In this document: positions 7,842-64,000 of the stretch, piece by piece
How positions within the stretch are numbered: position 1 is the stretch's first letter
How the letters are laid out: each line of letters starts with the position of its first letter
Source of the DNA: Planctomycetota bacterium
Lineage (GTDB): Bacteria; Planctomycetota; PLA2; JAEUHO01
Reading direction: 5' to 3'
Assembly: GCA_965223505.1 (NCBI GenBank)
Contig: CBDCWP010000021.1
Coordinates: 32,001-96,000 of the forward strand
Length of the DNA stretch: 64,000 nt
The notes under the pieces: generated by a model
Database searches by the model: none
What the model saw: the letters and a program-made list of their open reading frames with translations, nothing else
What the model was told of the DNA's origin: nothing
Translations under genes and position numbers: made by a program

Positions 7842-7842
7842 G

Positions 7843-8189: not shown

Positions 8190-8321
8190 ACTTCGTAGGT
8201 CGGGGGAGGACGGTACCTCCGAGGCACCGGGGGTCAAGGGGCGGGGCCAGTCGCCGGCTCGGTCGGCGCCAGGGCAGACGCGGGACCGGGCCGGGGCGCA
8301 GGAAACGGGACTTCGCGTCCG

Positions 8322-9023: not shown

Positions 9024-9065
9024 GGCCGGATTGTACGCGCCCCGCATGCGACGAGCGCAGCGTCC

Positions 9066-9740: not shown

Positions 9741-9752
9741 GAGCGCAACACG

Positions 9753-10400: not shown

Positions 10401-10432
10401 ACGGCGCGTTTCTCGGCGATGGTTGGACCATC

Positions 10433-11386: not shown

Positions 11387-11406
11387 GTATCGTGCCCATC
11401 CAACGC

Positions 11407-12345: not shown

Positions 12346-12354
12346 GATCGCTCC

Positions 12355-39469: not shown

Positions 39470-41023
39470 ATGCCCACGACGAGGCTGCTCACCGCACTTA
39501 CGGCGCTATTGATCGTATTCACGACGAGCGCCTGCGGAGGCGGGGGAGGAGGAGGCGGCGGCCAGGTCGTGCCGCCGGATGGCAAGGCCCTCTCCCTCAC
39601 TCCGAAGGCGTCCTTCTCCAGTGACGACGTGTGTCATCTGTTGATGCGGACACACTTCGGCATCACGCAGCAGGAGCACGACGGCGCGATGGCCATGGGT
39701 CTCGACGCGTACGTCGACCAGATGGTGGACTTCCAGCTCGACCCCGTCTTCGAGGCCGCCGCGCTCGACGCGACGATTCCGGTCGAGGACCGGGACGACC
39801 CGAGCCGTGAGCAGCTCGAGCGCTGGTGGATCTACATCATGACCCACACCGACCAGCCCTTCGTCGAAGCACTGGCGATGTTCTGGCACGACCACTTCGC
39901 CACGTTGACGGACGTACTCGACGGCGACGAACGCTGGTGGTACTTCAACCACCTCAACCTGGTGCGCACGAGCGGCCGCGCGAACTTCCGCCAGTTCCTG
40001 TTCGACATGGCTACCGACTGGGTGATGCTCGACTTCCTGGACGGCATCCGTAGCCGTGTCAACAACATCAACGAGAACTTCGCGCGCGAGTTCTGGGAGC
40101 TGTTCACCCTCGGCGAGGGCAACGGCTACACGCAGGAAGACATCGAGGAAGCGGCGCGCTGCTTCACCGGCTACGACGACTTCACGGACGCCAACGACGG
40201 CGACCGGGAGAAGATCCGTTGGGAAGCCGACCGGCACGACACCGGGGACAAGACGATCTTCGGTCAGACGATCACGGGCCGTTCGGGCGACACCGCCTGG
40301 CTCGAGTACTTCGACGTCATCGACTTGACGCTCTCCGAACGTCCGGTGGCCGAGTACATCGTCACGAAGCTCTGGGAGTACTTCGTTTACGCCAATCCCC
40401 CGCAGGAGCTGGTCGATCAGTTCGCACAGGTCTTCCGAGACAACAACTGGGAGATCGCCCCGGTCCTCAAGACCATGTTCAAGTCCGAGGCCTTCTACTC
40501 GTCGGCGGCCAAGGTCGGCATCATGAAGAGCCCCGTCGACTACGGCGTCGGCTTCATCCGCAGTACGACGCTCAACATCGAGGAAAGTCGCCTCGAGGAC
40601 GGCCTGACCGCCTCCGGCCAGCGTCCCACCCGCCCGCCGAACGTTGCGGGCTGGGAGCACGGCGACCTCTGGCACTCGGCCCAGAACGCGGTCGAGCGCG
40701 CGAACATGATCCAGGATTGCATCACGCGCCGCAGCTACCAGGCAAGCCAGAACATCGATCTGGCGAACCTGCTGCCGCCCGGCGTCGACGCCAACACGCC
40801 GCCGACCGCGGACGAGGTCGTCGACTACTTCGAGTTCCTGTTGCACGTCGACCTGTCGCAGTCGGAAGAGATCAAGTACGTCGACTTCCTGAACTCGTTC
40901 CGTCAGTCGGATGGGACGGTCGTCGTCGACCCGTTCAACCCGGAAGACAGCCGGCACGTGGACGAGCGCGTGCGCGGGCTGCTTTTCATGTTCTCGCAGC
41001 ACCCCGCCTACCACGTTCGCTAG
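39470..41023 (+). CDS. DUF1800 family lipoprotein (copy 1, no Ig module)
   Basis: TSAC-GGG lipobox; HLLMRTHFG, FWHDHFA, NENFAREFWELFTLG, PPNVAGW, QHPAY. Confidence 0.9.
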   Translation: MPTTRLLTALTALLIVFTTSACGGGGGGGGGQVVPPDGKALSLTPKASFSSDDVCHLLMRTHFGITQQEHDGAMAMGLDAYVDQMVDFQLDPVFEAAALDATIPVEDRDDPSREQLERWWIYIMTHTDQPFVEALAMFWHDHFATLTDVLDGDERWWYFNHLNLVRTSGRANFRQFLFDMATDWVMLDFLDGIRSRVNNINENFAREFWELFTLGEGNGYTQEDIEEAARCFTGYDDFTDANDGDREKIRWEADRHDTGDKTIFGQTITGRSGDTAWLEYFDVIDLTLSERPVAEYIVTKLWEYFVYANPPQELVDQFAQVFRDNNWEIAPVLKTMFKSEAFYSSAAKVGIMKSPVDYGVGFIRSTTLNIEESRLEDGLTASGQRPTRPPNVAGWEHGDLWHSAQNAVERANMIQDCITRRSYQASQNIDLANLLPPGVDANTPPTADEVVDYFEFLLHVDLSQSEEIKYVDFLNSFRQSDGTVVVDPFNPEDSRHVDERVRGLLFMFSQHPAYHVR

Positions 41024-41041
41024 AGGAGAGGAGGTCCACCT

Positions 41042-42364
41042 ATGTGCGACGGCCACGACACCAAGGAGAAGGCGGGCGTCACAAGGCGTGATGTCCTGAA
41101 GTACTCGGCGGTGGCCGGAACCGCGATCGCGGCGATGGGCCCCTTGGGTTCGAAGCTGCTTCCCAGCGCGACCGGCGCGATCGCGCAGCAGACCCACCTG
41201 ACCATCGTCAACATGTTCGGCGGCAACGACGGCTTGAACACGGTGATCCCCGTGGCGAACGGCGTGTACGACACCTACGCCGGTAGGCGTCCCACGATCG
41301 CGATCGATCCGCAAACGGACGCCGTCCATGCGCTCGGCAACAGCAACTACGTCCTCCACCCGCAGCTCCCCAACATCGGGCGGCTCTACGGAGACGGCGA
41401 TGTCGCTGTCATCAACCTGGTCGGCTACCCGAATCCGAACCTCAGTCACTTCACGAGTGAGGACATCTGGAGCCGGGGCATTCGCAACAGCTTCCCGATC
41501 GGGCAGCAGCCGAGCGGCTGGATTGCGCGGTGGGCGGGACAGTACGAACCGCAACCGACGGGCGCCATCTCGGTCGGTCTGAGCCGACGTCGGGACTTCA
41601 CTGGCGGCACGTCAGACCCGCTGATCCTTTCGCGTGCGAGCAACTTCCGGTTCGACCGCGACGGACAGTACTCGAACAACCACGACTACCGCATGGACAT
41701 CGTCCGTCAGGTGCTCGCGGAGAGCGGGGCGGTGGGTTCCTCCGCGACGGCGCGCGACTCGATGGACCAGGCGCACCAGCTGATCGATCAGACACAGCTC
41801 GCGCTCGAGGAGTACGAGAACTTCGCCAACAAGGCGGCGTACTCGAGCGACCGCCCTTCGCGGTACCTCCAGGACATCGCGCGTCTGATCCACGGCGGAT
41901 TCGACACGCGCATCTTCTACACGGGATTCGGCGGGTTCGACACGCACGGCGACCAGGGCGCCGCGACGATCGACCCCAACAACGAGCCCCGTCACGCGCG
42001 CCTGCTCCGTCGTCTCGACGAGGGCATCGCTTCGTTCGAAGCGGACATGAAGGCCATGGGCATCTGGAACAAGACGTTGATTGCGGTGATCTCCGAGTTC
42101 GGGCGCCGGAACTTCGAGAACGGTTCCAACGGCACCGACCACGGACACGGCGCGGCCATGTTCCTGATCGGCGGCGCGGCAAACTCGGGGGTCTTCGGCC
42201 CAGAGATCACGAGCGAGATGATCGACGAGAACTGGATGGCGCCGCACATCGACTTCCGCAATGTGTACCGCGAGGTCCTGGCGGGGCATCTGGGTGTGAC
42301 CGACTTCTCGTCGATCTTCCCGGAAGCGCCAATGAACCCGTACGCGCCGATGGGGCTCGTCTAG
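41042..42364 (+). CDS. DUF1501 family protein with Tat signal (copy 1)
   Basis: TRRDVLK; GGNDGLN, SHF, GGFDTH, SEFGR, GTDHG, DFR. Confidence 0.9.
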   Translation: MCDGHDTKEKAGVTRRDVLKYSAVAGTAIAAMGPLGSKLLPSATGAIAQQTHLTIVNMFGGNDGLNTVIPVANGVYDTYAGRRPTIAIDPQTDAVHALGNSNYVLHPQLPNIGRLYGDGDVAVINLVGYPNPNLSHFTSEDIWSRGIRNSFPIGQQPSGWIARWAGQYEPQPTGAISVGLSRRRDFTGGTSDPLILSRASNFRFDRDGQYSNNHDYRMDIVRQVLAESGAVGSSATARDSMDQAHQLIDQTQLALEEYENFANKAAYSSDRPSRYLQDIARLIHGGFDTRIFYTGFGGFDTHGDQGAATIDPNNEPRHARLLRRLDEGIASFEADMKAMGIWNKTLIAVISEFGRRNFENGSNGTDHGHGAAMFLIGGAANSGVFGPEITSEMIDENWMAPHIDFRNVYREVLAGHLGVTDFSSIFPEAPMNPYAPMGLV

Positions 42365-49309: not shown

Positions 49310-49770
49310 GTCTTGGGTGTCCCGCGCGGGATATCGAACAGTGCCACTAGCACAACCCACCCAGAGGTCCACTGCAATACGAAGTAAAGCGATTCTGACG
49401 GACGCTCGGCGCGTTTTACCGAAAAGCTGTCCGCTACTGCACGAAGGTCCCTATACCCAGGCAGTGTCTCGCCTCGGATGCAGGGTCGGACGAGACACGG
49501 CAGGAACCCGGCTCCGTCAAGGGGGTTTGAGTGCCTGTCAATCGGTTCGAATACAGATACAGGTGGGACCGACGGCACCCTGGTGTCGATAGACCTGGAG
49601 GTTTCGTGCCTCTTCGCGGCCGGCGGCCTCGAAACGCGCGCAGCCGCCCAATCTCAGGTCGTCGACGGGCGTCTCGCGGAGGGCATCCTCCCGCTGCGCA
49701 AGCCGGGCAGTTCGCTCGGGTGTTCTGGATTCGTTCGTACGACACCCTGATCTCGAACGGAGGCCACCCA

Positions 49771-51657
49771 ATGCGCACGGCGTCATGGCATGGGTCGATT
49801 CCCAAGAGCGCCGGAGGCCGCGCGCCTCACCCGCTCGTCTTTCTCGCACTCTTCTTCGCCGCGCTCGCGCTTCCGGCGTGCGGTGGCGGCGGCGGCACCG
49901 CCGACCCAGGTGCGACCGTCCCGCCGTCGAACCTCGTGTACGACGACGGCAATCCGCTCTACCGCACCGACGCGCCGATCACGCCCAACTCGCCGACGGT
50001 GGACGGAGGCGCGGTCACGCTCTATACCTGCACGCCCGCCCTTCCGGCCGGACTCTCGATCGACCCGTCAACGGGCGTGATCTCGGGTACGCCGTTGGCA
50101 CCTTCGGCGGCCGCCCCGCACACCGTCGAAGCATCGAACGCCGGTGGCTCGACCCAGTCCGTCGTCGTGATCGAGGTCAAGTGGGCCTTGTTCAAGTCGA
50201 TCGAGCCCCAGCAAGGTCTCTCCGACGCGGACATCCGGTACTTCCTCGACCGCACGCACTTCGGGTTCAACGACGCGAAGTACGCGGACATCAACGTCAA
50301 GGGCATGAGCACGTACCTGGACGACGAGCTCGCCGCCATCGGTCCGACGCCGGCGCTCGAAGCGGAAGCCGAAGGGTTCGTCGAGGACACGGACTTCCCG
50401 TCGTTCACGGAGCTCGCACTCTATTGGCTGCACATGCTGCAGCGCACCCCCAATCCGCTCCAGGAGTCGATCGCCCTGCACTGGCACGATCACTTCGCGT
50501 GCTCTTCGGACGTCCTGAGCGAGGCCAGCACCTACTGGTTCTTCGACCACATCAATCTATGGCGTCACAACGGGGCCGGCAACCTGCGTGACCTCATCCT
50601 CGCGATGGCGCGTGACTGGTCGATGCTCGAGTACCTCGACGGCCGCGACAGCACCGCCGCGGCGCCCAACGAGAACTTCGGCCGCGAATACCTGGAGCTC
50701 TACTGCAACGGCGCGGACGAGGGCTACGACCAAGCCGACATCGTCGCGGCCGCGGCGCTGTTCAGCGGCTACCGGCGCGTGTTCAATCCCGGCACCCAGC
50801 AGTTCGACATCGTGTGGAATCCCAACTTCCACAACGCGAATGACCAGACGTTCCTCGGCGTGTTCTTCCCCGGCGTTTCGAGCCAACCGCAGGACGAGTA
50901 CGCACAGGTCGTCGACGTTACGCTGGCGCACAAGCCGCAGGGGGACACGATCGGCTACACGTCGCGTTGGATCGTGAAGCAGATCCTGCGCCGCTACTGC
51001 ATGGAGAACCCCGATCAGGTTCTCATCGACCAGCTCGCAACGGTGCTCGAAAACGCCAACTGGGAGCTGACGCCGCTGTTCAAGACGCTGTTCCTCTCGG
51101 AGGCGTTCTACTCGAGCCAGGCCAAGGCCGGCTTCGTGAAGACACCCACCGAGCACATGCTCGGCTTCATCCACTCGACGGGCCTGGTCGTTCAGATTCA
51201 GCGTGGCAACCTCGGCTTCGGGGACGGCGGTCAGCTGGGTCTCGACAACGTTCTCGCGAACCTGTCGAACCGGATGACGCAGCCTCCGGTCGTGGCCGGC
51301 TGGCCCGAGGGTACGTCATGGTTCTCCGCACAGGGCATGGTGGACCGCGCCAACGCACTCGAGTTCATCATCGGTGAGCAACGCGGCTTCCAGGCGAACG
51401 AAGGGGTGGACCTCACGACGCTGCTCACCAACGGCACGACCTCGACGACGACGCAAACTGTCGACGACATCGAGCTGCGCTTCGGCATCACGCTGACACC
51501 CTCCGAGCAGACCAGGTTGGAGGAGTATCTCGACACGGACGAGGTCGGCAGCCTCACGAACGACCCATGGGACGCGTCGAATCCTACGCACATCGACGAG
51601 CGGCTGCGTGGGCTGCTCTACGTCATGGGCCAACATCCCCAGTACCTGCTTCGGTAG
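49771..51657 (+). CDS. DUF1800 family lipoprotein with Ig-like module (copy 2)
   Basis: LPAC-GGG; LPAGLSIDPSTGVISGTP; RTHFG, HWHDHFA, PNENFGRE, PPVVAGW, QHPQY; GGAGG RBS. Confidence 0.9.
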   Translation: MRTASWHGSIPKSAGGRAPHPLVFLALFFAALALPACGGGGGTADPGATVPPSNLVYDDGNPLYRTDAPITPNSPTVDGGAVTLYTCTPALPAGLSIDPSTGVISGTPLAPSAAAPHTVEASNAGGSTQSVVVIEVKWALFKSIEPQQGLSDADIRYFLDRTHFGFNDAKYADINVKGMSTYLDDELAAIGPTPALEAEAEGFVEDTDFPSFTELALYWLHMLQRTPNPLQESIALHWHDHFACSSDVLSEASTYWFFDHINLWRHNGAGNLRDLILAMARDWSMLEYLDGRDSTAAAPNENFGREYLELYCNGADEGYDQADIVAAAALFSGYRRVFNPGTQQFDIVWNPNFHNANDQTFLGVFFPGVSSQPQDEYAQVVDVTLAHKPQGDTIGYTSRWIVKQILRRYCMENPDQVLIDQLATVLENANWELTPLFKTLFLSEAFYSSQAKAGFVKTPTEHMLGFIHSTGLVVQIQRGNLGFGDGGQLGLDNVLANLSNRMTQPPVVAGWPEGTSWFSAQGMVDRANALEFIIGEQRGFQANEGVDLTTLLTNGTTSTTTQTVDDIELRFGITLTPSEQTRLEEYLDTDEVGSLTNDPWDASNPTHIDERLRGLLYVMGQHPQYLLR

Positions 51658-51682
51658 GCGCGCAACAAGAAAGGCAAGACTC

Positions 51683-52999
51683 ATGTGCAACCACAAGAAG
51701 AAGCACTCAAAGACGCGCGCCCGCCTGACCCGTCGCGACGTCGTTCGCTACGGCATCGCGGCAGGCGCCGGGATCGCTGCACTGGGACCGTTCGGCGGCA
51801 GGCTGCTGCCGAAGGCGACCGGTACGCCGCTTCCGAACCACCGGCGCTGCGTCGTCCTCTACTGCTACGGCGGGTACGACGGCCTCAACATGCTGGTGCC
51901 CACGGCTGGCGAGGCGGTCACGCCGTACACGAACCTGCGGCCCACGATCGCGATCACGAGCGGCACGCACGCGCTCAACGGGATCGCCAACTTCGAGCTC
52001 AACCCGAATCTCGACAACATGGCTGCGCTCTACAACCAGGGCGACGGCGCGATCTTCCAGAAGGTCGGCTACCCGAGCCAGAATCTCAGCCACTTCACGA
52101 GCCAGGACATCTACAGTGAAGGCGTGCGCAACGGCTTCGGCGGACTCCCGATTCAGGAGAGCGGCTGGATCGCGCGCTTTGCCGACCTGTACGCCCCCAC
52201 GCCCTTGGGCGCCGTGTCCGTGGGCGTCGGCAAACCGCTCGACTTCGTCGGTGGAACGTCGAACCCGTTCCTCGTGGATAGTCTCAACGGATTCGAGTTC
52301 GACGTCGACGGCGACTACCCGGCGAACCACCAGCATCGCCTCTCGGCCGTTCAGGACATCCTGAGCGGGTACACGGGCGGATCGTTGGACGAGGACGCCG
52401 CGACCGCGCTGGAACAAGGACTCGCGCTGACAGTGGACATCCAGGACGCGGTAGACAACTTCACGCCGCCGGCCGGCCAGCAGTACCCGAACAGCTCGCC
52501 GGGACGCTACATGAAGGACATCGCGACCCTGATCCAGCACGGAACGGAGACGCGGATGTTCTTCACCGGCTTCAGTGGCTGGGACACGCACGGCAACGAG
52601 ATCGCCGGCATGAACAACCGCTGCACCCGCCTCGACGACGCCGTCGGCGCGTTCGCGGGACACATGCAGGAGATGGGCCTGTGGGATGACACCCTCATCC
52701 TCGTGGTTTCCGAGTTCGGCCGGCGCAACTTCGAGAACGGCTCGTTCGGCACCGACCACGGACACGGCAACTGCTTTTTCGCGTTCGGCGGGACGGTGAA
52801 CTCCGGCTACTACGGCAACGAGCTGACCGCGGCGGAGCTGACGCTCCCGAACAACAACTGGCTGGGATACGACATCGACTTCCGTGACATCTACAAAGAG
52901 ATGATCGACGATCACTTCGCCGGTCTGGGCACGAACTCGAGCTTGATCTTCCCCGAGCCGCAAGACATCAACACGAACCTCAACTACATCACTCCGTAG
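51683..52999 (+). CDS. DUF1501 family protein with Tat signal (copy 2)
   Basis: TRRDVVR; GGYDGLN, SHF, GWDTH, SEFGR, GTDHG. Confidence 0.9.
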   Translation: MCNHKKKHSKTRARLTRRDVVRYGIAAGAGIAALGPFGGRLLPKATGTPLPNHRRCVVLYCYGGYDGLNMLVPTAGEAVTPYTNLRPTIAITSGTHALNGIANFELNPNLDNMAALYNQGDGAIFQKVGYPSQNLSHFTSQDIYSEGVRNGFGGLPIQESGWIARFADLYAPTPLGAVSVGVGKPLDFVGGTSNPFLVDSLNGFEFDVDGDYPANHQHRLSAVQDILSGYTGGSLDEDAATALEQGLALTVDIQDAVDNFTPPAGQQYPNSSPGRYMKDIATLIQHGTETRMFFTGFSGWDTHGNEIAGMNNRCTRLDDAVGAFAGHMQEMGLWDDTLILVVSEFGRRNFENGSFGTDHGHGNCFFAFGGTVNSGYYGNELTAAELTLPNNNWLGYDIDFRDIYKEMIDDHFAGLGTNSSLIFPEPQDINTNLNYITP

Positions 53000-53132
53000 C
53001 TGTGTTCGATCGGTTCCGCCGGCGTGTACCGGCGCCGGCGGAGCCATGACGGTTCGCGTCCCCGCAGCGAATCGTCGTCTCCCGAAGCGGGTATATCGAA
53101 CCGACCTCCACGTACGAAGGGTCGAACCTCGC

Positions 53133-54641
53133 ATGGCCGCACGAATCCCGAACCTCCGCCCGATCCGGCCGGGCTTGCGCGCCGCCCTCTCGGCGGCCGC
53201 ACTGCTCTCCCTCGTCGCCGCTTGCGGCGGCGGGGGGGGCGATGCCGCGCCGACGACGGCGCCCGCGAACCTCACCTACGACGTCGATCCCGGCCTCTAC
53301 CGCGCCGGGGAACCGATCACCGACAACAACGCGTCTACGACCGGAGGCGCGCCGACGAGCTTCACCGTGAACCCGCCGCTGCCGAGCGGGCTCGTTCTCA
53401 ATGCCGTCACAGGCACCATCGGCGGCACGCCGACCGTCGAGACGCCGGGCGCGGCGTACACGGTCACGGCCGCCAACAGCGCGGGCCAGACACAGACGGA
53501 CGTCACGCTCGCGATCGGCAAGCCGCTCCCCGGGAGCTTCGTGAGCTTGAAGGAGGGCTTCGAGGTCGAGTGCGTCCTCACGGGCCTGAACAAGGGTGCG
53601 CGGATCGCACTGTTGCCCGACGGACGCATCCTCTACACCGAGGTGAGCCTGGGCCGCGTGCGCGTCATCGACGCCAACGGCACGTTGCAGCCGGCGCCCT
53701 ATCTCGATCTGCTCTCGTTCCAGCTCGGAGGCGCGACCGTCGACCTGCTGCAGGGCTCGCACCAGGGGCTGCTCGGCCTCGCGATCGCGCCGGACTTCAA
53801 CGCGTCCGGACACGTCTTCGTGAGCCTCACCATCGGCGAGCAGGGGCAGCCGGACCGGATGGCCGTGTTGCGCTTCACGGACGATCCGACGCCGAACGCC
53901 AACCAGGGCACCGACATGCAGGTGGTGCTGGACGACCTCCCGACGGCGGACACGAACTGCGGCGGCGAACTGTTGTTCGAGCCCGATCCCGGCGGCGTCT
54001 ACGCGACGGACCGCATGTGGGTGAGCGTCGGCGATGCGGAGAACTCGCTGAACGCGCAGGCGCCGATCGCGACCACGCCCGCGGGCAAGATCCTGCGCAT
54101 CATCCCGACGACGCCCGCGACCTTGCCGCCGGAGAACACGTCGGGCACGCTCCAGTACGCGAACGGCTGCCGCGCGATCTTCGGCATGGGCACGCATCCG
54201 ACGCTCGGCGGCCTGTTCGTGGGCGACAACGGCGGCATGGACCTGGTCAACGGCCACGACATGCTGGACGAGGTCAACTACGTCATCGAAGGAAACAACT
54301 ACGGCTGGGGCTCCGGCGCCGGCGGCAACCCGTTGAAGGTCAAGGAGTGGACGAACGTGACCGTCGTCCCGGCAGGGCTCACCTTCCACACGGGCGCTGC
54401 GTTCTCGACGACGGTCCCCCCCACCGACAGCCTGTTCGTAACGGCACACCTCACGCGCGAGATCTTCCGATTCGTGATGTCCGGCGTAGCACGCACCGAC
54501 GTGGACCTCGAGGAGGTTTGGGCGCAAATGACGCTCAATCCCAACGACAACCCGCTCGACATCGTCGTCGACCCCGTGACGGACGACCTCTACGTCATCA
54601 CGTTCGGCGACATCTGGAGGATCAGCGCGATCACGCCGTGA
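53133..54641 (+). CDS. Lipoprotein with Ig-like module and GSDH-like propeller (copy 2)
   Basis: VAAC lipobox; LPSGLVLNAVTGTIGGTP; GLLGLAIAPDF, SVGD, GKILR, DEVN, NYGW. Confidence 0.85.
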   Translation: MAARIPNLRPIRPGLRAALSAAALLSLVAACGGGGGDAAPTTAPANLTYDVDPGLYRAGEPITDNNASTTGGAPTSFTVNPPLPSGLVLNAVTGTIGGTPTVETPGAAYTVTAANSAGQTQTDVTLAIGKPLPGSFVSLKEGFEVECVLTGLNKGARIALLPDGRILYTEVSLGRVRVIDANGTLQPAPYLDLLSFQLGGATVDLLQGSHQGLLGLAIAPDFNASGHVFVSLTIGEQGQPDRMAVLRFTDDPTPNANQGTDMQVVLDDLPTADTNCGGELLFEPDPGGVYATDRMWVSVGDAENSLNAQAPIATTPAGKILRIIPTTPATLPPENTSGTLQYANGCRAIFGMGTHPTLGGLFVGDNGGMDLVNGHDMLDEVNYVIEGNNYGWGSGAGGNPLKVKEWTNVTVVPAGLTFHTGAAFSTTVPPTDSLFVTAHLTREIFRFVMSGVARTDVDLEEVWAQMTLNPNDNPLDIVVDPVTDDLYVITFGDIWRISAITP

Positions 54642-54685
54642 ACCCTGGCGGGCAAGTCGCGGTATACCTGACCAAGGAGGTATCG

Positions 54686-56500
54686 ATGCGACCTGGAGCC
54701 ATGCGCATCTTCACAGCGCTCTTGGCGCTGATGCTCGCCGCATGCGGTGGCGGCGGCGGCGCCGCCGGACCGACGCCGGATGCGCCCACCAACCTGAGCT
54801 ACGACGACGCGAATCCCACGTATCGCACCGACGCGCCGATCGTGCCTAACAGCCCCTCGACGCTGGGCGGGACGCCGACGTCCTATACCGTCAACCCGCC
54901 GCTGCCCGCAGGCCTGGTCCTGAACCCCGCTACGGGCGTGGTGTCGGGCTCGCCCTCGTCGGCCGCGCCCGCCGCGCCCTACACGCTCACGGCCGCCAAT
55001 GCCGGCGGGTCGACCGATACCGTCGTGACGATCGAGGTCAAGTGGGCGACGTTCAAGTCGATCGAGCCGCACGCGGGGCACACGGACGACGACATTCGCC
55101 ACTTCCTGAAGCGGACGAACTTCGGGTACGAGGTCGACAAGCACGCCGAGATCACGAGCAACGGCTTCGACACGTACCTCGACGGCATCCTCGACATGAC
55201 GCCGAACGCGGCGCTCGAGAACGCCGCGCGGCAGGCGTATTTGGTCGATCTAGACGACCCCAACGGCGAAGCGCCGACGCAGGCCGACCTGGCACGTTGG
55301 TTGATCTACCTCATCCAGAACAACCCCAACGCGTTCCAGGAAGTGCTGGGCATGCACTGGCACGACCACTTCGCGGCGTCGTCGTCCGTCCTCGACGGGT
55401 TCAACAGCCGCTTTTTCGTGGATCACATCAACCTGTGGCGCCACGCGGGGGCCGGCGACCTGCGGCAGCTGCTCATCGACATGGCGCGCGACCCGGCGAT
55501 GCTCGTCTGGCTCAACGGCATCGACAACATCGCGCTCGAACCCAACGAAAACTTCGCTCGGGAGTACTTCGAGCTGTACTGCTTCGGCGTCGGCAACGGC
55601 TACACGGAGAACGACATCCAGGAAGCGGCGCGCGCGCTGACCGGGTATCGCTACCAGTTCAACCCGAACACGCAGCTCGTCGACGTGATCTTCAACCCGT
55701 TCTTTCACGACACGACCGACAAGACCGTGCTGGGAACGGTCATCCCCGGGCAGAGCCTCACCGACGACTACGAAGCGTTGGTGGACATCACGCTCGCGGA
55801 GCTCGATCCGGTCAGCGGCGTCCCGCGGGCGGCGCTTTGGATCACGCGGCAGACGCTTCGACGCTTCGTGATGGACGCGCCGTCCGCCGTGCTGGTCGAG
55901 CAGCTCGCGGCCGTGCTCGCCGCCAACTGGGACCTGACCGAGATGCTTCGGACGATGCTGCGTTCGGAAGCGTTCTTTTCGACCGTCGCCAAGACGGGCT
56001 TCGTGAAGACGCCGGTCGAGCACCTGATGGGGTTCATCCGCTCGACGAAGATCACGTGGGATCCCGCCACGATGGACTTTTTCTTCACGTTCATGGGGAA
56101 CCGACCGACGCAGCCGCCCACGGTCGACGGGTGGCCGGAAGGAACCCAGTGGTTGTCGGCACAGGGCATGGTCGACCGCGCCAACGCGCTCCGCTTTCTG
56201 ATCAGCGACCGCAACCACCAGACGACCAACAACGTGGATCTCACGCAGCTGATCGCGCCGCCCACGCCGCCGGCGACCAAGCCCACCGCGGAGGAGGTGC
56301 TCGACTTCCTCGCGAACCGACTGAGCGTGACGCTCGCGCCTTCGGAGCGTACGCAGATGCTCGATTACATGAACACGGATCTGGTCGGCGGCAACGTCGT
56401 CCCGGATCCGTTCGACGCGGACGACGTCGTCCACCTCGACCAACGAATGCGCGGCGTGCTGTACATGCTCGGACAGCACCCGTCGTACGTGCTCCGCTAG
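54686..56500 (+). CDS. DUF1800 family lipoprotein with Ig-like module (copy 3)
   Basis: AAGGAGG RBS; LAAC-GGG; RTNFG, HWHDHFA, PNENFARE, PPTVDGW, QHPSY. Confidence 0.9.
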   Translation: MRPGAMRIFTALLALMLAACGGGGGAAGPTPDAPTNLSYDDANPTYRTDAPIVPNSPSTLGGTPTSYTVNPPLPAGLVLNPATGVVSGSPSSAAPAAPYTLTAANAGGSTDTVVTIEVKWATFKSIEPHAGHTDDDIRHFLKRTNFGYEVDKHAEITSNGFDTYLDGILDMTPNAALENAARQAYLVDLDDPNGEAPTQADLARWLIYLIQNNPNAFQEVLGMHWHDHFAASSSVLDGFNSRFFVDHINLWRHAGAGDLRQLLIDMARDPAMLVWLNGIDNIALEPNENFAREYFELYCFGVGNGYTENDIQEAARALTGYRYQFNPNTQLVDVIFNPFFHDTTDKTVLGTVIPGQSLTDDYEALVDITLAELDPVSGVPRAALWITRQTLRRFVMDAPSAVLVEQLAAVLAANWDLTEMLRTMLRSEAFFSTVAKTGFVKTPVEHLMGFIRSTKITWDPATMDFFFTFMGNRPTQPPTVDGWPEGTQWLSAQGMVDRANALRFLISDRNHQTTNNVDLTQLIAPPTPPATKPTAEEVLDFLANRLSVTLAPSERTQMLDYMNTDLVGGNVVPDPFDADDVVHLDQRMRGVLYMLGQHPSYVLR

Positions 56501-56511
56501 GGAAACTCGGC

Positions 56512-57831
56512 ATGTGCCAACGACATCGACGCAAGCAACGGACGCCCGGCCGGGTCTCCCGGCGTGACGTGATCCGCTACGGCCTCGCCGGCGCCGGCAT
56601 CGCCGCGCTGGGACCGCTCGGCCGGTCCATGATGCCCGCGGCGCAAGGCGCGCCGCTCCCCAATCACAAGCGGTTGGTCGTCATCAACTGCTACGGCGGC
56701 TACGACGGGCTGAACATGATGCCGATCACGGCCGGCCCCGCTGCGCAGGCGTACCAGGATCGCCGGCCGGCCATCGGCATCGACCCGCTGGACGCCTTGC
56801 CGCTCAACGGCGTCAGCGACTACGGCCTGCACCCCAACCTCGCCAACCTCCAGACGCTGTTCAACGCCGGCGAGGTGGCGACGTTCCAGAAGATCGGCTA
56901 TCCCACGGAGGATCTCAGCCACTTCGTCAGCCAGGACATCTACAGCTTCGGCGTACGCGGCTCCTTCGGGCCGCTCGGGATTCCGGCGAGCGGTTGGATC
57001 GCGCGTTACGCGGAGCTCTACGCACCCACGCCGCTCGGCGCGTGCGCCATCGGCGTCGGCCTTCCGCTCGACTTCGAAGGCGGAAGCTCGAATCCGTTGA
57101 CGCTGTTCAACTTGACGTCGTTCCAGTTCTTCGCGGACGGTGCGTACCCGGCGAACAGCCAGCACCAGCTCGACACGATGGACGCGCTGTTGAACGGCTA
57201 CAGCGGCACGCCGCTCTCCGAGTCGGCCGCGCTGGCCGAGCAGCAGGGTCATCAGCTCAGCAACGACATCCAGGACGCGCTGCAAAACTCGGCATCGCCA
57301 CAGGCGGCGAACTACCCGGCGTCGTCGCCGGGTACGTTTCTCAAGGACGTCGCCAACCTCATCAACCACGGCACGGAGACGGAGGTCTTCTTCACCGGCT
57401 TCAACGGCTGGGACACGCACGCCGCGCAGACCAACCAGAACAATGCGAACACAGGGACGATGGCCAACCTGATCACGCGGCTCGACGGCGCCGTCGGCGT
57501 TTTCGCGCAGGATCTCAAGGACATGGGCGTCTGGAACGACACGGTCGTACTGATCGTGACCGAGTTCGGGCGTCGCAACTTCGAGAATGGGTCGTTCGGC
57601 ACCGATCACGGCCACGGCAACACGTTCTTCGCCACCGGCGGCCCGGTGATCGGCGGGTACTACGGACCGCAGCTCGCCGAGGCGGACCTGCTGCAGAACT
57701 ACCTCGACTACGAGATCGACTTCCGCGACGTCTACAAGGAAGCGCTGTCGAGGCACCTGGGCGTCGATGACGCACCCGTCTTCCCCGAACCGCTCGAGAA
57801 GAACAACACGCTCAACTATCTGCCGGTGTAG
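56512..57831 (+). CDS. DUF1501 family protein with Tat signal (copy 3)
   Basis: SRRDVIR; GGYDGLN, SHF, GWDTH, TEFGR, GTDHG. Confidence 0.9.
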
Positions 57832-60616
57832 CGACGGCATCGACGACGCGGTGCAGTTCCTTGATCGAGATCGGCTTGGAGATGTACTCGTCCATGCCGG
57901 CCTCGATGCAGCGCTCCCGGTCGCCTTGCATGGAATGCGCGGTCATCGCGATGATCGGAATCTCCGGGGATGCCGGCGTTTCGCCGGCGCGAATCCGGTG
58001 GGTCACCTCGAAGCCGTCGATCCCGGGCATCTGAACGTCCATTAGGATCAGGTCGAAGTGCCCTGAGCCGAGCAGCTCGATCGCGGCCTCGCCGGACTCG
58101 GCAATCGCGACGTCGTGACCACGCTTGTGAAGCATGTGTTGTGCGACGGCGGAGTTGACGGGATTGTCCTCGACCAGCAGCACACGCAGCGTGGGGCCGC
58201 GCTCGGGCTCGCCGTTGTCGTGGTTCGTGACGGCGGGGGACGCGGCACCCATCGCGAGTTGGATCTCGTCGAGAAGCTCGGACGGGTTGACGGGCTTGAG
58301 GAGCTGCGATCGGTAGCCGAGTTCCTTCGCGCGGTGCATCCCGCCGGGGTACGAGCCGGAGCTGAGCAGGATCAGCTCGACGTTCGGGATCGAGCCGTCG
58401 CCGTGCAGGGCCTCGGCGAACATGAAGCCGTCGGCCTTGGGCATGTGGAAGTCCACGATCGCCATGCGGATCGGATCGTCGGTGTCCGCGGCGGCACGCA
58501 GCCGATCCAGGCCGGCCTCCGCGCCCGCGACGGAGACGGGCCGCAGCCCCCAGCGCTGCAACAGACGCTCGAGCACCATCCGATTGGTTTCGTTGTCGTC
58601 CACGATCAGTACCGGCAGTCCGCGCAGGTTCGCGGGCGGCCGGTCGAAAATCGGAAGCGCCGCCTCGGGCGCGAGGCCCACCGGGATCACGAAGTGGAAC
58701 GTGCTGCCCTTGCCCACCTCGCTCTCCACCCAGATGCGACCTCCCATGAGATCGACGAGCCGCGCGGAGATGGCGAGCCCCAGACCGGTGCCCCCGTACT
58801 GTCGCGTCGTCGACGCATCCGCCTGCGCAAAGGCCTCGAAGATGTGCTCGACCTTCTCGGGGGGAATGCCGACACCGGTATCCCGGACCTGGAAGTGCAG
58901 TTCGACGCGATCCGCCCTGAGCGGCCCCTCGGGCTCCACGTGCACGACGACCTCGCCGTCCTTCGTGAACTTGACCGCATTGCCGACGAGATTGACGAGG
59001 ATCTGACGAATGCGAGCGACGTCTCCGACGACGCCGTCCGGCACTTGCGTTGCGACGTCCCAGGCCAGCTCGAGTCCCTTGTCGGACGCGCGTACGCCGA
59101 GGACCTGCAGCGTTCGGCCGATGAAGTCGCGCAGGCTGAACGGACGCGGGTCGAGCTCGAGCTTGCGGGCCTCGATCTTGGAGAAGTCGAGGATGTCGTT
59201 CAGCACCGTCATCAGCGCGTCGGCGGAGTACTTCACGGCATCGAGGTACTGACGCTGCTCGGCGGTGAGCTGCGTGTCGAGGGCGAGCTCGGTCATCCCG
59301 AGAACGCCGTTCATGGGCGTGCGCACCTCGTGACTCATGTTCGCGAGGAACTCGCTCTTGGCCCGCGTCGCGGCCTCGGCGTGCTCCTTGGCTTCGACGA
59401 GCTGGGCCTGCGCGCTCTCCAGCGCCCCGGCCATGTGGTTGAAGCGTTCGCCGAGATCGTAGAGCTCATCCTTGCCGTCGATCTCCACACGGGCAGACAG
59501 ATCGCCCTCGCCGACGGCCGTGGCCGCGCGGCCCAGCCGCCCGATTCGCCTCGTGAGCGCGTGCGCGATCAGCCACCCGAACGCGAGCGCGAGCAAGGTC
59601 GCCAATCCCGCCGTGATGATCGTCGTCCTGCGCAGCTCGTCGATGGGCCCGAAGACGTGGTCCTGATCCCATTCCCAGAGGAGGATCCAGCCCAGCCCGC
59701 CGAAGCTCTCGTGCCCGCGGGATCGCGCGAAGGCTGAGAGCACCTCACGACCGCCTCGCGTGTGCTCGGCTACGAGCACGTCGCTCTCGCCTCCGAACGC
59801 GACGCCCTCGAAGAACACCGGCGCCTCGCGCGGCTCGCCGATCGGCTCGTCGCTGATGTGAATGAGCAACCGGTTGCCGCTGAACAGCGCTACGCGGCCG
59901 CCGGCCAGCCCCTGCGCGCGTTCGTTGATGAGCTCGATGACGTCGTGGATGTTGAGGACCGCCTTCAGGACGCCGGCGAACGCGCCGTCGGCATCCGTCA
60001 GTCGAACGCAGACGTCGCAGGAGTAGATCCCGGCGCTGTCGTCGAACTGGACGTCGCCGACGTAGACCCCCTCCTCCTTGGCCGTGTCCCACCACGTCTC
60101 GCCCTTCTGCATGAAGTCCGACGTTCGATGCGTCTGCGCGACGTTCGCGCCGTACCGATTGGTGAGGAAGACCTCACCGAAAACGGGATATCCGCGCGCG
60201 TTGCTCAGCTTCCGGAGGCGCAGCCGCATGTCGGCGGAGAGAGGGTCGGCGATCAGCTCCCTCATGAGCGGTGTCTCGCCCGGCGACGCCTGCCAGCGCT
60301 CGTCCTGATCACGAATGTACGCATCCACGTCGTCGAGACGGGCGAATGCGGCGTGCGAGCTCTTCAGCGCGTCGCGCACGGGACTGCTGTCCGCGTAGGC
60401 CTCCCACTCGCGGACCCAGCCGGCCATGTCGCGGTCGATCTCGCTCATCAAGGCGCGCACCTGCATCTTGGACGATTTCTCGATCGCCTCGCGCAGGCTC
60501 GCCTCGCCGGACGACGATGCGTAGAACGCCGTCCCCCAGATCAGAACGACGGGCAGCAGGGCCCCCAGGATGAGCTTTGTAGCGATCCGCACGGCGGCAC
60601 AGATACTAGCCCGCAT
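57812..60616 (-). CDS. Membrane hybrid sensor kinase (Cache-like periplasmic domain, HAMP, HisKA, HATPase, two REC); start may be GTG 60592
   Basis: [41 protein letters not shown], two receivers (VDFHMP, MDVQMP). Confidence 0.93.
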
Positions 60617-60747
60617 GGTTCATGAACTGGCGCTGAAGTCGTGCGGTTCTCGCCCGCCTTTCTGCCCGGTCTCCTCGCGCAGAACCGCCGCTCGGCGACC
60701 GAACGTCTTCGCCCCCCGGTGCTCGCGCCGGAATCTCACAAGGGGAT

Positions 60748-63045
60748 CTACTGCGCGGGCGAGCCCTCCGGCTGCGCGGCGGATCCTGCGAAGCTCCGGT
60801 CGACCACCACCTCCGGTCGTGCCCCTTTCACGTGTTTCCAGCGAGAGATCATGAACCAAGCGATCGGCACGACGCCGCCGAACGTGAAGATCCACCCGCC
60901 GACCGCACGCATCCAGGTCAGCGTCTGGAAGGTGGAGCCTCCGATGAAATCCGCCGACCTTGCGGACGCGTATCCGTCCTCGAGCACTACGCCGAGTTGC
61001 ACGAGACCGACCGGCAGCGTATCGAGGAGCAGCATCAGCATCAGTCCGATGTTGAGCGCCCAGAACGAGGACCTCAGCGTTCCAGCCCCCCACTTGCCTT
61101 CCGGCAACAGGAACCGTGCGCAGAACAAGCTGACTCCGATCGCCAGGTTGCCGTATACGCCCATCAACGCAGCGTGACCGTGATTCACCGTCAGGTACGT
61201 GCCGTGCTCGTAGTAGTTGACGATGGGAAGATTGATGATGAGGCCGAAGACGCCCGCGCCGAGGAAGTTCCAGAAGTTCACGCCGATGAGGAACAGGAAT
61301 GCGACGTCCTGCCCGAAGCGCGCGCGGTTACCAGGGTTCTTCGCGGTAGCGAGCGCGCGCGCGGGCATTCGTCGGAACTTCCATGCATCGAGTGTGAGCA
61401 GGATCAACGGAAGGACCTGCAGCGTGGAGAAAACACTGCCCAAAGCGAGCATCGAGACCGGCTTTGCGTTCCAGTAGAAGTTGTGGGCAATGCCCAGCAG
61501 GCCGGATCCCAAGAAAAGCAGCGTCGCGATGTAGCAGGCCCGGACCGCGCGCTGCTTGCTCACAAGCCCCATGAAGACGAGGAAGAACGCGACGATCACC
61601 GTCGTGAAGACCTCGAAGAAACCCTCGACCCACATGTGAATCACGGCCCAACGCCAGAAGTCCGCAATCACGAAGTTCGTCTTTGGTCCCGAGATGAACC
61701 CGGAGATGAAGAGCACGAGCACGGAGCACACGGTGAACACCAGAAGCCACGGAAGCGAAAGCGGGCCCATGCGCCGAATGGCCGGCTTCGCACCTCGGTA
61801 GAGAATCAACAACCACAGCGCGATGGCGACGAACAGCAGCCCCTGCCATGCGCGGCCGAATTCGACGAACTCCCATCCTTGATGACCCAGCATGCGCCAA
61901 TAGCCCTGCATGACGCCCTTGGGTCCCAGAACGATGCCGACGAGACTGCCCACGACGAGCACGATGACGAGCCAGAACAGGGAGCGCACGAGCAGCATCT
62001 GCTTCGGGGGTTCCTCGCCGGAGATCTTCGGCAACAGGAAGATCGAAGCGCCCATCCAGCAAGCGCTGATCCAGAACAGCGCCAACGCCAAGTGCAGGCT
62101 CCGCGTGATCGTCACCGGCAGCCACACCGCGATGTCGATCCCGAAGAAGACGGTCGCGCCCAGAAAGTCGTGCGCGACGAGCGCGCCGAAGAGGACTTGA
62201 ACCAAGAACAGCACGGACGCGACCGCCATGAACGGATAGGCGGCTCGCTGAGTGGGAGTCGGCGTGGACTTCGCGACGCCGTCGTCGGTCAGGACGTCGG
62301 ACTTGTCACTCACGTCCCAACCGGCGGTTCGTCCGGCCCGACCGTAGCCGTAGAGGACGAACCCGACACCGAGGATGAACCCGAGGATGCCGATCACGCT
62401 CCAGAGTGTCGTGGGCGCGCTGGGCTGATTGCCGGCCTCGGGATCGAACGGCCAGTTGTGCGTGTAGCTGTAGTCGTAGCCGGGCCGTCGAGCACCGCAA
62501 ACCCATGCTCCCCAATAGAAGAACGCAGCGAGGTCGGACAGCTCCCGCTCGTCGGTGATGTAGCCTGCCGGCTCGAATCCCCCGTCGCCCTCGTCCGTGA
62601 AGAACCAGGCGACGTGGCCCGCGTAGATTCCGTACGCATGCACGTCCGCCGCCGAAAGCGTCACGACGTTCCTCTCGGCGTCTAGCGTGTTGTTCTTGAT
62701 CTCGCGTTGAACCCGCAACGCGACGACATCCTCGTCCACGCCGCTCTCGCGCGCGTAGTACGCCCGCATGTACTGCGCGCGGCGACGAAGCGCATCCGCA
62801 GTGAAGTCCGGCCCGCGACCGGATCCGTCGCCGAAGTAGGAACCGTACTCCATCAACGCGCGCTGCAAGAACACGGCCTGGCCGGCGAGGATCTTCTCTT
62901 CGTCGAACAGCACGGCCCCGTCCGGCCCCTCGAACCTGGCCATTGGCGGCGCGTCCTGATAGGTGCGCGTCGCCATCCAAGCGAGACCCGCGCCCCCGGT
63001 CACGATCACGACGAAGAGCGGGATCCACCAATGACGTTTCTTCAT
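60748..63045 (-). CDS. Single-subunit heme-copper oxidoreductase of the qNor family with Nod-like (putative NO dismutase) substitutions, 765 aa
   Basis: GPDFTA, YTHNWP, RSLH, GHQGWEFVE, HMWVEGFFEVF, GIAHNFYW, STLQVLP, INLPIVNYYEHGT, NHGHAALMG; GGAGGA RBS. Confidence 0.9.
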   Translation of the reverse strand: MKKRHWWIPLFVVIVTGGAGLAWMATRTYQDAPPMARFEGPDGAVLFDEEKILAGQAVFLQRALMEYGSYFGDGSGRGPDFTADALRRRAQYMRAYYARESGVDEDVVALRVQREIKNNTLDAERNVVTLSAADVHAYGIYAGHVAWFFTDEGDGGFEPAGYITDERELSDLAAFFYWGAWVCGARRPGYDYSYTHNWPFDPEAGNQPSAPTTLWSVIGILGFILGVGFVLYGYGRAGRTAGWDVSDKSDVLTDDGVAKSTPTPTQRAAYPFMAVASVLFLVQVLFGALVAHDFLGATVFFGIDIAVWLPVTITRSLHLALALFWISACWMGASIFLLPKISGEEPPKQMLLVRSLFWLVIVLVVGSLVGIVLGPKGVMQGYWRMLGHQGWEFVEFGRAWQGLLFVAIALWLLILYRGAKPAIRRMGPLSLPWLLVFTVCSVLVLFISGFISGPKTNFVIADFWRWAVIHMWVEGFFEVFTTVIVAFFLVFMGLVSKQRAVRACYIATLLFLGSGLLGIAHNFYWNAKPVSMLALGSVFSTLQVLPLILLTLDAWKFRRMPARALATAKNPGNRARFGQDVAFLFLIGVNFWNFLGAGVFGLIINLPIVNYYEHGTYLTVNHGHAALMGVYGNLAIGVSLFCARFLLPEGKWGAGTLRSSFWALNIGLMLMLLLDTLPVGLVQLGVVLEDGYASARSADFIGGSTFQTLTWMRAVGGWIFTFGGVVPIAWFMISRWKHVKGARPEVVVDRSFAGSAAQPEGSPAQ

Positions 63046-63232
63046 TGGTCCTCCATCCAACTGACACGTCGCTGAAACCCGAGCGCGCAAACCCGGTCGC
63101 GCACGTGAACGCCGGAATTCCGACCTTTCCGATGTCGCTGGGGGTACGTACGCAGTATCGAACGGACGGCGTGGAATCGTCCGCAATCGGGCAGTCCTCC
63201 GTGGAGCCGTCGTTTTCAGCGAGACTGCGCGC

Positions 63233-64000
63233 ATGCGTACGAAGCCGCGCCCATTGATCCTCCGAGACGGCACGTCGCTGCTCGTTCGGCCGGCGGAGCC
63301 GGCGGATACGGAAGCCTTCGACGCGTTCATCGACCGCATGGCGGTCGAGCGTTCGACGACCGGCTGCGACGCGTCGAATCCTTCGGAGCAGTTCTGCTTG
63401 CTGGCGCTCCGCACGCTCGACGGCGCGCAACGGGTGGTCGGCGCGGCGGAGTACGTCGTCACCGACGACGGATGCGCGAACGCGGCCCTCGGCGTCGACG
63501 AGGCGTTCAGAGGGCTCGGACTCGCGACCGGGCTCCTGCGTCGTTTGGCGCTCACGGCCGCGCATCACGACGTGCGCGTGCTGCGGGCGCGGTCCGGCAG
63601 CGCCGCGCTGCTCGAGGTGCTACGCAATTCGGGCGTCCCGCAGCTCGACACCGCCGAGGCGGGCACGGTCTCGTTCGATCTCGGCGCCGTGCCGACGCCG
63701 CAGAGTCGCGAGCAGTCGGAGACGCGGGATCGCCTCGCGACCGCGGCGTCGATCCATCCGTTCTTCCATCCGACCGCCGTCGCCGTGATCGGCGCGTCGC
63801 GTGACCCGAAGAGCCTCGGGGCGCGAACGCTGCGCGCGCTCGTGAAAAACCGCTTCCGTGGTCCGGTCTACGCCGTGAACCCGAAAGCCGACTCCATCGG
63901 CGCGATGCCGTGCTTCCCGTCCGTTGCCGCTCTGCCGCGCGAGGTCGAGCTGGCAATCGTCCTCGTCCCCAAGGAGCACGTGCTCGGCGTCGTCGACGAG
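63233..64000 (+). CDS. GNAT plus CoA-binding (acetate-CoA ligase-like) protein, Pat/PatZ-type lysine acetyltransferase; 3'-truncated
   Basis: Not in the ORF track (no stop in window): ILRDGTSLLVRPAEPAD, VDEAFRGLGLAT, FHPTAVAVIGASRD, VYAVNP. Confidence 0.85.
   Translation, partial: MRTKPRPLILRDGTSLLVRPAEPADTEAFDAFIDRMAVERSTTGCDASNPSEQFCLLALRTLDGAQRVVGAAEYVVTDDGCANAALGVDEAFRGLGLATGLLRRLALTAAHHDVRVLRARSGSAALLEVLRNSGVPQLDTAEAGTVSFDLGAVPTPQSREQSETRDRLATAASIHPFFHPTAVAVIGASRDPKSLGARTLRALVKNRFRGPVYAVNPKADSIGAMPCFPSVAALPREVELAIVLVPKEHVLGVVDE

Follow-up and report, generated by a model that had tools for sequence, protein, structure and literature searches.

The 64,000-nucleotide window analyzed here, from a genome of the Planctomycetota (GenBank assembly GCA_965223505.1, contig CBDCWP010000021.1, positions 32,001 to 96,000), encodes on its reverse strand a protein of the quinol-dependent nitric oxide (NO) reductase (qNor) family, P0001 (60748-63045), which to judge from its residues and phylogeny is very probably an intact member of the published family of putative nitric oxide dismutases (NOD), an offshoot of the quinol-dependent NO reductases in which Asn stands in place of a metal-coordinating His. 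Its sequence assigns P0001 to a subclade rich in proteins of Planctomycetota, Scalindua and Bacteroidota (clade A), not to the subclade taken to be of the Methylomirabilis/HdN1 type (clade B). The substitutions H560N, E581Q and D746G (numbering of Geobacillus stearothermophilus qNor) are evidently not due to chance in P0001, being clade-wide. P0001 does not represent a novel enzyme type: earlier publications cover the family, its occurrence in the Planctomycetota and the hypothetical status of its chemistry, and sequences of the same type from Planctomycetota, Scalindua and Bacteroidota already carry the name nod or NOD in the literature. The novelty implied by the original prediction for this window, a prediction made from the letters alone, is too high.

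The frame at 60748-63045 is free of stops, and its 765 codons specify a 765-residue protein whose identity as a NOD-type member of the qNor family follows from translation, Pfam domains, a match to the qNor structure 3AYF and placement in clade A in two trees. A Shine-Dalgarno-like GGAGG (63050-63054, reverse strand, read directly from the sequence) lies 4 nucleotides ahead of the ATG at 63045; a longer open reading frame (ORF) starting with GTG extends to 63555, but the ATG is preferred because alignments with homologs begin at residue 1 of the 765-residue form. The predicted layout is an N-terminal transmembrane helix, a heme-free NorB cytochrome c-like domain (PF22085, residues 38-199, 6.5e-40) and a COX1 core (PF00115, residues 268-719, 3.2e-46), which is the qNor-like architecture expected of a NOD; no NCBIfam model names the protein. 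Among proteins of solved structure, 3AYF, the qNor of G. stearothermophilus, matches it best (E = 3.9e-150), and the qNors of Achromobacter xylosoxidans and Neisseria come next. P0001 deviates at just six of the 202 columns that are conserved in at least 95% of clade A, which argues for purifying selection, and by its sequence it is an intact and typical member of that clade.

Residue correspondences were taken from the pairwise HMMER alignment of P0001 (residues 31-739) with 3AYF (48-767), in which the stretches used are ungapped and HN, Q and GG each lie between identical residues with no gap nearby. The motifs on which the original prediction rested (GIAHNFYW, STLQVLP, WMRAVGG, the N-terminal loop FGDGSGRGPDFTA, VEGFFE and LVAHDF) all occur in the translation, its codon readings are exact, and the qNor residue numbers that it gave (H560, E581 and D746) agree with the 3AYF alignment, with PMC10286720 and with the legend of Fig. 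4 in PMC3413370. At the non-heme metal site (FeB), H559 corresponds to His521 (CAC, 61483-61485) and H560 to Asn522 (AAC, 61480-61482), so that the third FeB His is Asn (both codons at 61480-61485, reverse strand, like all those that follow); no other His occupies the position in the alignment. H508, E512 and E516 are kept as His470, Glu474 and Glu478, with Glu474, the FeB-ligand Glu, and a Gly that is rare within the clade encoded at 61621-61626 (Glu474-Gly475, equivalent to E512-G513). The three-His-plus-Glu metal site of canonical qNor (H508, H559, H560 and E512) is thus altered at H560, and the canonical Glu581 is Gln543 (CAG, 61417-61419). P0001 retains His at all three heme-ligand positions checked, as well as the other two His and the Glu of FeB; each His is presumptively assigned to its heme as is general for heme-copper oxidases. 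The combination of a metal His changed to Asn, a nearby Glu changed to Gln and retention of the heme and other metal histidines is that of a NOD.

The quinol site of P0001 is partly kept. H328 of G. stearothermophilus (H305 of A. xylosoxidans) is retained as His292 (62170-62172), whereas E332 is lost (Gly296) and D746 (D724 of A. xylosoxidans) is replaced by Gly717 (60895-60897), the second Gly of WMRAVGG, so that the His328-Asp746 pair of the canonical quinol (Qi) site is not intact. The equivalents of Trp718 and Arg720 of A. xylosoxidans are present as Trp711 and Arg713. This state, with His, Trp and Arg retained and Asp and Glu both replaced by Gly, is typical of clade A.

These residues may be set against the published descriptions of the family (Ettwig 2012, Murali et al., Ruff et al. 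2024). Ettwig et al. (2012; PMC3413370) defined the putative NODs by replacement of a coordinating His with Asn and of a nearby Glu with Gln, by substitutions in the proton channel and by loss of a proper quinol site; they called dismutation speculation, and already included a Bacteroidota sequence from Muricauda. The signature residues of qNor are listed as His328, Glu332, Phe336, His508, Glu512, His559 and His560 in PMC10286720, where nod of the NC10 cluster is reported to have Thr in place of His328 and clusters termed "unknown qNor-related" are placed between nod and qNor. A later survey (PMC11549561) extends NOD to 16 phyla and 162 genera and divides it into four subclades with 40-50% similarity, all with Asn (N564 in Methylomirabilis oxyfera numbering), and describes the enzyme as "not biochemically or structurally characterized". 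In bioRxiv 10.1101/2023.11.21.568154 a "Planctomycetia-type Nod" is named, which has uninformative gene neighbors and shares about 40% identity with the Alpha-type Nod, and nod is reported from Planctomycetota UBA1135, Scalinduaceae, Maribacter and Cecembia in PMC11828985.

Homologs of P0001 delimit the two clades. A word-indexed protein search listed 120 proteins (the query and 119 matches of 52-70% identity and 95-100% coverage), the matches belonging to Planctomycetota, Proteobacteria, Obscuribacterales, Myxococcota and Bacteroidota isolates such as Negadavirga and Aquiflexum; all 120 contain G[IV][SA]HNFYW and FST[LM]Q, with xHDF and R..GG among the most frequent of the variants listed. 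A relative is encoded by 515 stretches of species-representative genomes, and among the best 80 of these are many from Planctomycetota, Scalindua, Brocadiaceae, Acidobacteria, Obscuribacterales and Saprospiraceae, besides that of Cerina litoralis. When representatives of 50%-identity clusters were searched exhaustively with P0001, clade A was represented by a single sequence (P0121, 53% identical), followed by P0122 (42%, the next full-length match), which has HNFYW, Q and GG and lacks His328, and then by qNor-like sequences at 28-40%. P0122 and 119 matches to it make up the 120 listed proteins of clade B, from Pseudomonadales, Magnetovibrio, Rhodobacteraceae, Myxococcota and Acidobacteriota among others, to which P0001 has a median identity of 44%, as compared with approximately 36-38% to qNor representatives. 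Clade B is provisionally equated with the canonical Methylomirabilis/HdN1-type Nod because JGI names two of its 120 proteins (P0292 and P0321) "nitric oxide dismutase", because H328 is Thr in 75 of 120, the change reported for nod of the NC10 cluster, and because the 44% identity is close to the approximately 40% reported between Planctomycetia-type and Alpha-type Nod (bioRxiv 10.1101/2023.11.21.568154).

Residues were counted in 121 clade-A, 120 clade-B and 16 qNor cluster-representative sequences. The position of H560 is Asn in every member of both clades (121/121 and 120/120) and His in all 16 qNor; that of E581 is likewise Gln in 121/121 and 120/120, and Glu in 16/16. D746 is Gly in 120 of 121 clade-A and 116 of 120 clade-B sequences and Asp in all 16 qNor, and the N-terminal GHG, with His or Asn in qNor, becomes GDG in 120/121 and 117/120. 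E512, H508 and H559 are invariant throughout, as are the heme histidines (H318, H622 and H624) apart from H624 in one qNor (15/16). The clades part at the sites of electron entry: H328 is His in 110/121 of clade A and 15/16 qNor but in none of the 120 clade-B sequences (which also have Met, Ile or Leu besides Thr), and W718 is Trp in 117/121 of clade A and 11/16 qNor, whereas clade B has Tyr in 86 and Trp in three of 120; R720 is Arg in every sequence of all three sets. Clade B is uniformly Val at G513 (120/120), where clade A has Ala (90), Cys (28), Gly (2) or Ser (1) and 11 of 16 qNor have Gly, and uniformly Ile at N564 (G. stearothermophilus numbering; 120/120), where clade A has Asn. With His292, Gly475, Asn526 and Trp711, P0001 has none of the Thr, Val513, Ile564 and Tyr718 set of clade B. 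Within clade A, the Gly of VEGFFE occurs only in P0001 and in P0002, the protein closest to it (2/121).

Both trees place P0001 in the Asn-bearing lineage, apart from qNor and outside clade B, which answers the possibility, raised with the original prediction, that it might cluster within canonical qNor. Tree 1 (68 rows: 29 of clade A, 23 of clade B and 16 qNor; LG+G4, short search) drew its A and B rows from a random sample plus named picks, leaving out 92 of 121 and 97 of 120, respectively, and gave Shimodaira-Hasegawa-like approximate likelihood ratio (SH-aLRT) supports of 100 for A+B, 98 for A and 100 for B. Tree 2 (33 rows, LG+C20 with posterior mean site frequencies, quick search, three long-branch qNor rows dropped) gave supports of 100, 99 and 100. 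In both, all qNor representatives lie outside A+B, clades A and B are sisters with strong support, and P0001 and P0002 form a long two-member branch of their own (support 100 in tree 1). In tree 1 the branch to A is shorter than that to B (0.19 versus 0.61), and the Bacteroidota form a separate subgroup inside clade A. The rows of both trees were without the named references M. oxyfera and HdN1, and without a published Planctomycetia-type sequence identified by name.

The original prediction had seen in P0001 something intermediate between qNor and Nod, on account of its VEGFFE and its quinol-site His. That description does not survive the comparison, for the His is a property of the clade and the two Glu do not discriminate, Glu512 being universal in the sets compared and Glu516 present in every clade-A and clade-B sequence and nearly every qNor. 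Nor does P0001 stand nearer to qNor than the other proteins of clade A do, an idea rejected on its identity ranks of 8, 37, 68 and 88 among the 121 members of clade A against four qNor representatives. What did stand was the identification of a Nod-related enzyme of putative chemistry in a planctomycete, with no nir gene beside it.

The host genome (5.15 Mb in 44 contigs, 63-72% GC) is 92.47% complete, and the absences given here hold for the assembled portion of approximately 92.5%. P0001 is encoded by its only qNor-family gene (tblastn, E <= 1e-3) and is thus no paralog within this genome, as it had been called. The search of the genome for nirK, nirS and nosZ that had been proposed returned none: nirS and nirK had no matches, and the NosZ model gave only two CuA-like segments of about 24 bits against a cut-off of 625. 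Hcp was not found either, nor was a convincing NrfA in the same assembly (best match 26.5 bits over 60 residues). Present, in contrast, are NarG (1493.6 bits, above cut-off; G000:C38:125387-128983, reverse strand, within L089), NapA (932.5 bits, approximately 359 kb from the nod-type gene on the same contig) and an HAO-like multiheme cytochrome (89.8 bits). The NarG match is interrupted by one in-frame TGA, which could be a sequencing error, a pseudogene mutation or recoding. Five other genes for subunit I of heme-copper oxidases are present, of which two are of the CtaD type, one is very divergent, and two bear a distant likeness to CcoN, scoring 200-243 bits where the cut-off is 583. A 521-residue frame (G000:C31:92995-94560, reverse strand, the same as L086:1282-2847) with weak COX1 matches (59 bits in Pfam and 24 bits to a CcoN-type NCBIfam model) may encode a very divergent heme-copper-oxidase-like protein.

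Distribution of the qNor-family gene among the 40 relatives examined is patchy: 8 of 24 genomes of the same family have a match, with at least 50% identity in only three (G012, 71%; G015, 51%; G013, 50%), and the 16 genomes from other families gave no match.

The preferred reading of P0001 as a NOD with dismutase-type chemistry, engaged in removal of stray NO, is put forward tentatively, at a little under an even chance as a whole. From the sequence, NO is likely to be its substrate, and dismutation (2 NO -> N2 + O2) is a putative chemistry that is quite possible though on balance doubtful. P0001 would bind heme b, heme b3 and a non-heme metal held by a set of two His, Glu and Asn, and would turn over NO without the normal input of electrons from quinol to heme b or the proton relay through Glu581; reduction needs protons and quinol, and with Glu581 and Asp746 replaced their normal supply is improbable. 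Since the Asn and Gln of the catalytic site are common to clades A and B and would therefore predate their split, the chemistry proposed for clade B, that of Methylomirabilis Nod, is the single most likely reaction. The O2 formed would be consumed by oxidases of the host. With no nirS, nirK or nosZ found in the genome and Nar and Nap present, the role would be to clear NO that leaks from nitrate or nitrite metabolism or from neighboring cells, not to carry out a step of complete denitrification.

Several points weigh against this reading. According to PMC11549561 and PMC3413370, NOD has not been obtained in pure form from any subclade and dismutation is a hypothesis even for Methylomirabilis. 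The equation of clade B with canonical Nod is founded on two source names, one reported substitution and levels of identity. Of the four residues to which PMC13087809 ascribes a part in binding quinol or transferring electrons in A. xylosoxidans qNor, clade A retains three (His in 110/121, Trp718 in 117/121 and Arg720 in 121/121), so that electron input, and hence reductase chemistry, stays within reach. The reported position of Bacteroidota relatives in nor/nos gene clusters (bioRxiv 10.1101/2023.11.21.568154, and PMC11828985 for Cecembia rubra) fits production of N2O better than dismutation.

The strongest alternative, unlikely but to be reckoned with, is accordingly an N2O-forming NO reductase with a non-canonical metal site of two His, Glu and Asn, serving NO detoxification and drawing electrons from quinol through His292, Trp711 and Arg713, or from another donor. 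The equivalents of His328 and Trp718 that clade A keeps are mostly lost in clade B, and Arg720 is kept. In A. xylosoxidans qNor, two quinol sites are described, His305/Asp724 near heme b and Trp718/Arg720; the mutations W718A and R720A each cost approximately 85% of activity, and both residues are shared with cNOR (PMC13087809). Some clade-A loci adjoin genes of nitrosative stress (RIC in L054, L015 and L064; Crp/Fnr in L054; globin in L015), the Bacteroidota nor/nos clusters point the same way, and the gNOR family offers a precedent of a heme-copper oxidase with a replaced active-site His that is still proposed to be an NO reductase (bioRxiv 10.1101/2021.10.15.464467). On the other hand, 120 of 121 clade-A sequences have Gly for the Asp of the quinol site, and mutations of the homologous His, Arg and Asp abolished activity of the Persephonella marina qNor (cited in PMC13087809); every member has Gln instead of Glu581, a residue implicated both in catalysis and in the delivery of protons; and no nosZ was found in the assembled host genome to make use of N2O, an objection that does not touch pure detoxification.

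The mixture of a NOD-type site with a partly retained entry for electrons also admits the idea, considered improbable, that clade A may not be functionally equivalent to the Methylomirabilis-type Nod but an enzyme in its own right, one that accepts electrons and converts NO with a product or a stoichiometry unlike that of qNor or of the proposed dismutase. Were it true, the enzyme of a planctomycete with Nar and Nap, in whose genome no nirS, nirK or nosZ was found, would use NO of exogenous or adventitious origin and could contribute to formation of O2 or N2 outside classical denitrification.

Rather improbable, too, is a chemistry or role for which NO is not the physiological substrate, such as NO-dependent signaling, sensing of O2 or an N-oxide, or conversion of some other small molecule. 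The activity of the whole family is putative, a gene for a hybrid sensor kinase follows that of P0001 on the same strand, an ODP-GGDEF sensor is encoded near a Scalindua nod (L028), and neighborhoods are inconsistent across 24 loci. However, the kinase is not conserved as a neighbor even beside a 70%-identical homolog, the full set of heme and metal ligands is conserved with the qNor core, and transcripts of the Planctomycetia-type nod rise in nitrite-rich anoxic water (13-19 reads per kilobase per million, RPKM; bioRxiv 10.1101/2023.11.21.568154).

A misaligned canonical qNor or a decaying pseudo-enzyme, for which the approximately 36-38% identity to qNor representatives and the full-length match to 3AYF might speak, is ruled out for practical purposes by the gap-free alignment and identical flanks at HN, Q and GG, by separation of the clade from the 16 qNor representatives at 100 SH-aLRT, by clade-wide residue counts, by the absence of stops and by the near-complete conservation of clade columns.

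The gene neighborhood of P0001 bears little on its function. Downstream, after a gap of 131 nucleotides, lies a gene on the same strand for a hybrid sensor histidine kinase (57812-60616; dCache-like, HAMP, HisKA and HATPase_c domains and two receivers by Pfam). The original prediction of no NO regulator beside the gene must be qualified by this kinase, to which no signal is assigned. Cotranscription of the two genes is possible, and the 131-nucleotide gap has no terminator-like site; the scan of 57500-63600 gave no promoter-like site and three terminator-like sites, all within coding regions and at the level of chance. Upstream and divergent, a protein with a CoA_binding_2 domain begins at 63233 and runs off the window at 64000 (forward strand). 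FNR/Dnr-type regulators bind a box of consensus TTGAT-N4-ATCAA; none with up to two mismatches occurs in the intergenic stretch upstream of the nod-type gene (63046-63232), and the window as a whole has 17 against 6.5 expected.

The nod homolog most similar to P0001 (P0002, 70% identical), in locus L001 of a Planctomycetota metagenome-assembled genome (MAG) of the same GTDB family, adjoins a likely counterpart of the CoA-binding gene (L001:2595-5219, forward strand; Pat-like, with GNAT, CoA_binding, Succ_CoA_lig and ATP-grasp domains), in an orientation relative to nod that is inverted between the two genomes. The hybrid kinase is not beside this homolog and was rejected as a conserved partner of nod.

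A Pfam census of 115 ORFs in 24 clade-A loci drawn from the best 80 (nine ORFs longer than approximately 1000 residues dropped) found no gene that consistently adjoins nod and hence no conserved operon. Neighbors that recur are DUF1800-DUF1501 pairs, RIC/hemerythrin proteins, Crp/Fnr regulators, an ODP-GGDEF sensor, and multiheme cytochromes with Fer4_5/TPR partners. In five Planctomycetota loci, a DUF1800-DUF1501 pair lies directly upstream of nod on the same strand, in operon-like fashion with a gap of approximately 10-120 nucleotides (L008:2491-5411, L011:4923-7893, L012:5015-7945, L013:4910-7880 and L023:5066-7989), and in L020 and L047 the pair is downstream. The window itself contains three DUF1800/DUF1501 pairs (39392-42364, 49531-52999 and 53024-57831), a sign of its planctomycete origin, the last ending approximately 2.9 kb from nod. 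Such genes are very abundant in Planctomycetota; their adjacency to nod may be a matter of chance, and the five loci may be close kin. Outside the lineage of P0001, neighbors of a kind typical of NO or O2 stress occur for some clade-A nod genes, at L054:6943-7677, 10562-11299 and 11711-12406, at L015:4232-5878 and at L028:706-2529: ScdA/hemerythrin (RIC) proteins are encoded beside nod in L054, L015 and L064, with two Crp/Fnr-type regulators in L054, a globin and rubredoxin-RIC fusion in L015, and an ODP (di-iron)-GGDEF sensor in L028, from a Scalindua MAG. Other nod loci of Planctomycetota and Acidobacteria are flanked by CarboxypepD_reg/multiheme (MtrC-like) proteins and a Fer4_5-TPR membrane protein (L006:1679-3850 and 6856-10873; L010:5227-7344 and 10356-14373; L002:10327-12741).

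NOD is the candidate enzyme for light-independent production of O2 from NO. P0001 extends it by a complete, well-conserved protein of a planctomycete with a high GC content, in whose assembled genome no gene for a nitrite or N2O reductase was found. This accords with published work, in which the majority of nod carriers are unlike the oxygenic methanotroph Methylomirabilis. The result is more useful at the level of the clade, where retention of His328, Trp718 and Arg720 alongside the shared Asn, Gln and Gly offers a possible contrast with the Methylomirabilis type in electron uptake; the only feature particular to P0001 and P0002 is the Gly of VEGFFE.

Among known systems, the qNors of G. stearothermophilus (3AYF/3AYG) and A. 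xylosoxidans are homologous to P0001 over their full length (E = 3.9e-150 and 3e-123) with the same order of domains, and P0001 keeps from them H328, H508, E512, E516, H559, the heme-ligand histidines, Trp718 and Arg720. Unlike them, it has Asn for the third FeB His, Gln for Glu581 and Gly for both Asp746 and Glu332, and it falls outside the 16 qNor representatives.

The putative NO dismutases of Ca. Methylomirabilis oxyfera (DAMO_2434 and DAMO_2437) and NorZ of strain HdN1 (PMC3413370) are compared here by way of clade B. Clades A and B share H560N, E581Q, D746G, loss of E332 and the N-terminal change from GHG to GDG, with the heme ligands, two FeB His and Glu512 kept; they differ at H328 (Thr, Met, Ile or Leu in B, His in A), G513 (Val versus Ala, Cys or Gly), N564 (Ile versus Asn) and W718 (Tyr versus Trp). 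In the literature, M. oxyfera has nirS, a methane monooxygenase and physiological production of O2, whereas neither nirS nor nirK was found in the assembled genome that encodes P0001.

The Bacteroidota proteins described as "unknown Nor-related" or NOD (Muricauda ruestringensis G2PJH6, and those of Cecembia, Algoriphagus and Sediminibacterium) were compared through clade-A isolates: proteins of Negadavirga, Aquiflexum and Cerina are 51-53% identical to P0001, fall in clade A and have the same motifs. Their contexts differ, as Bacteroidota members are reported with nor/nos or NsrR-type genes and the Cerina locus L054 has RIC and Crp/Fnr neighbors, none of which is beside P0001.

The Planctomycetia-type Nod (OTU I of Fuchsman 2017, according to bioRxiv 10.1101/2023.11.21.568154) and the nod of UBA1135 and Scalinduaceae (PMC11828985) are close to P0001, apparently as members of the same clade A. 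Loci of Scalindua and other Planctomycetota MAGs encode proteins 50-58% identical to P0001 over their full length, and the neighbors of P0001, as reported for that type, suggest no related function. P0001 differs from the other Planctomycetia-type members of clade A in sharing a long branch with P0002 alone, in having Gly at G513 (2/121) and in residing in a high-GC genome.

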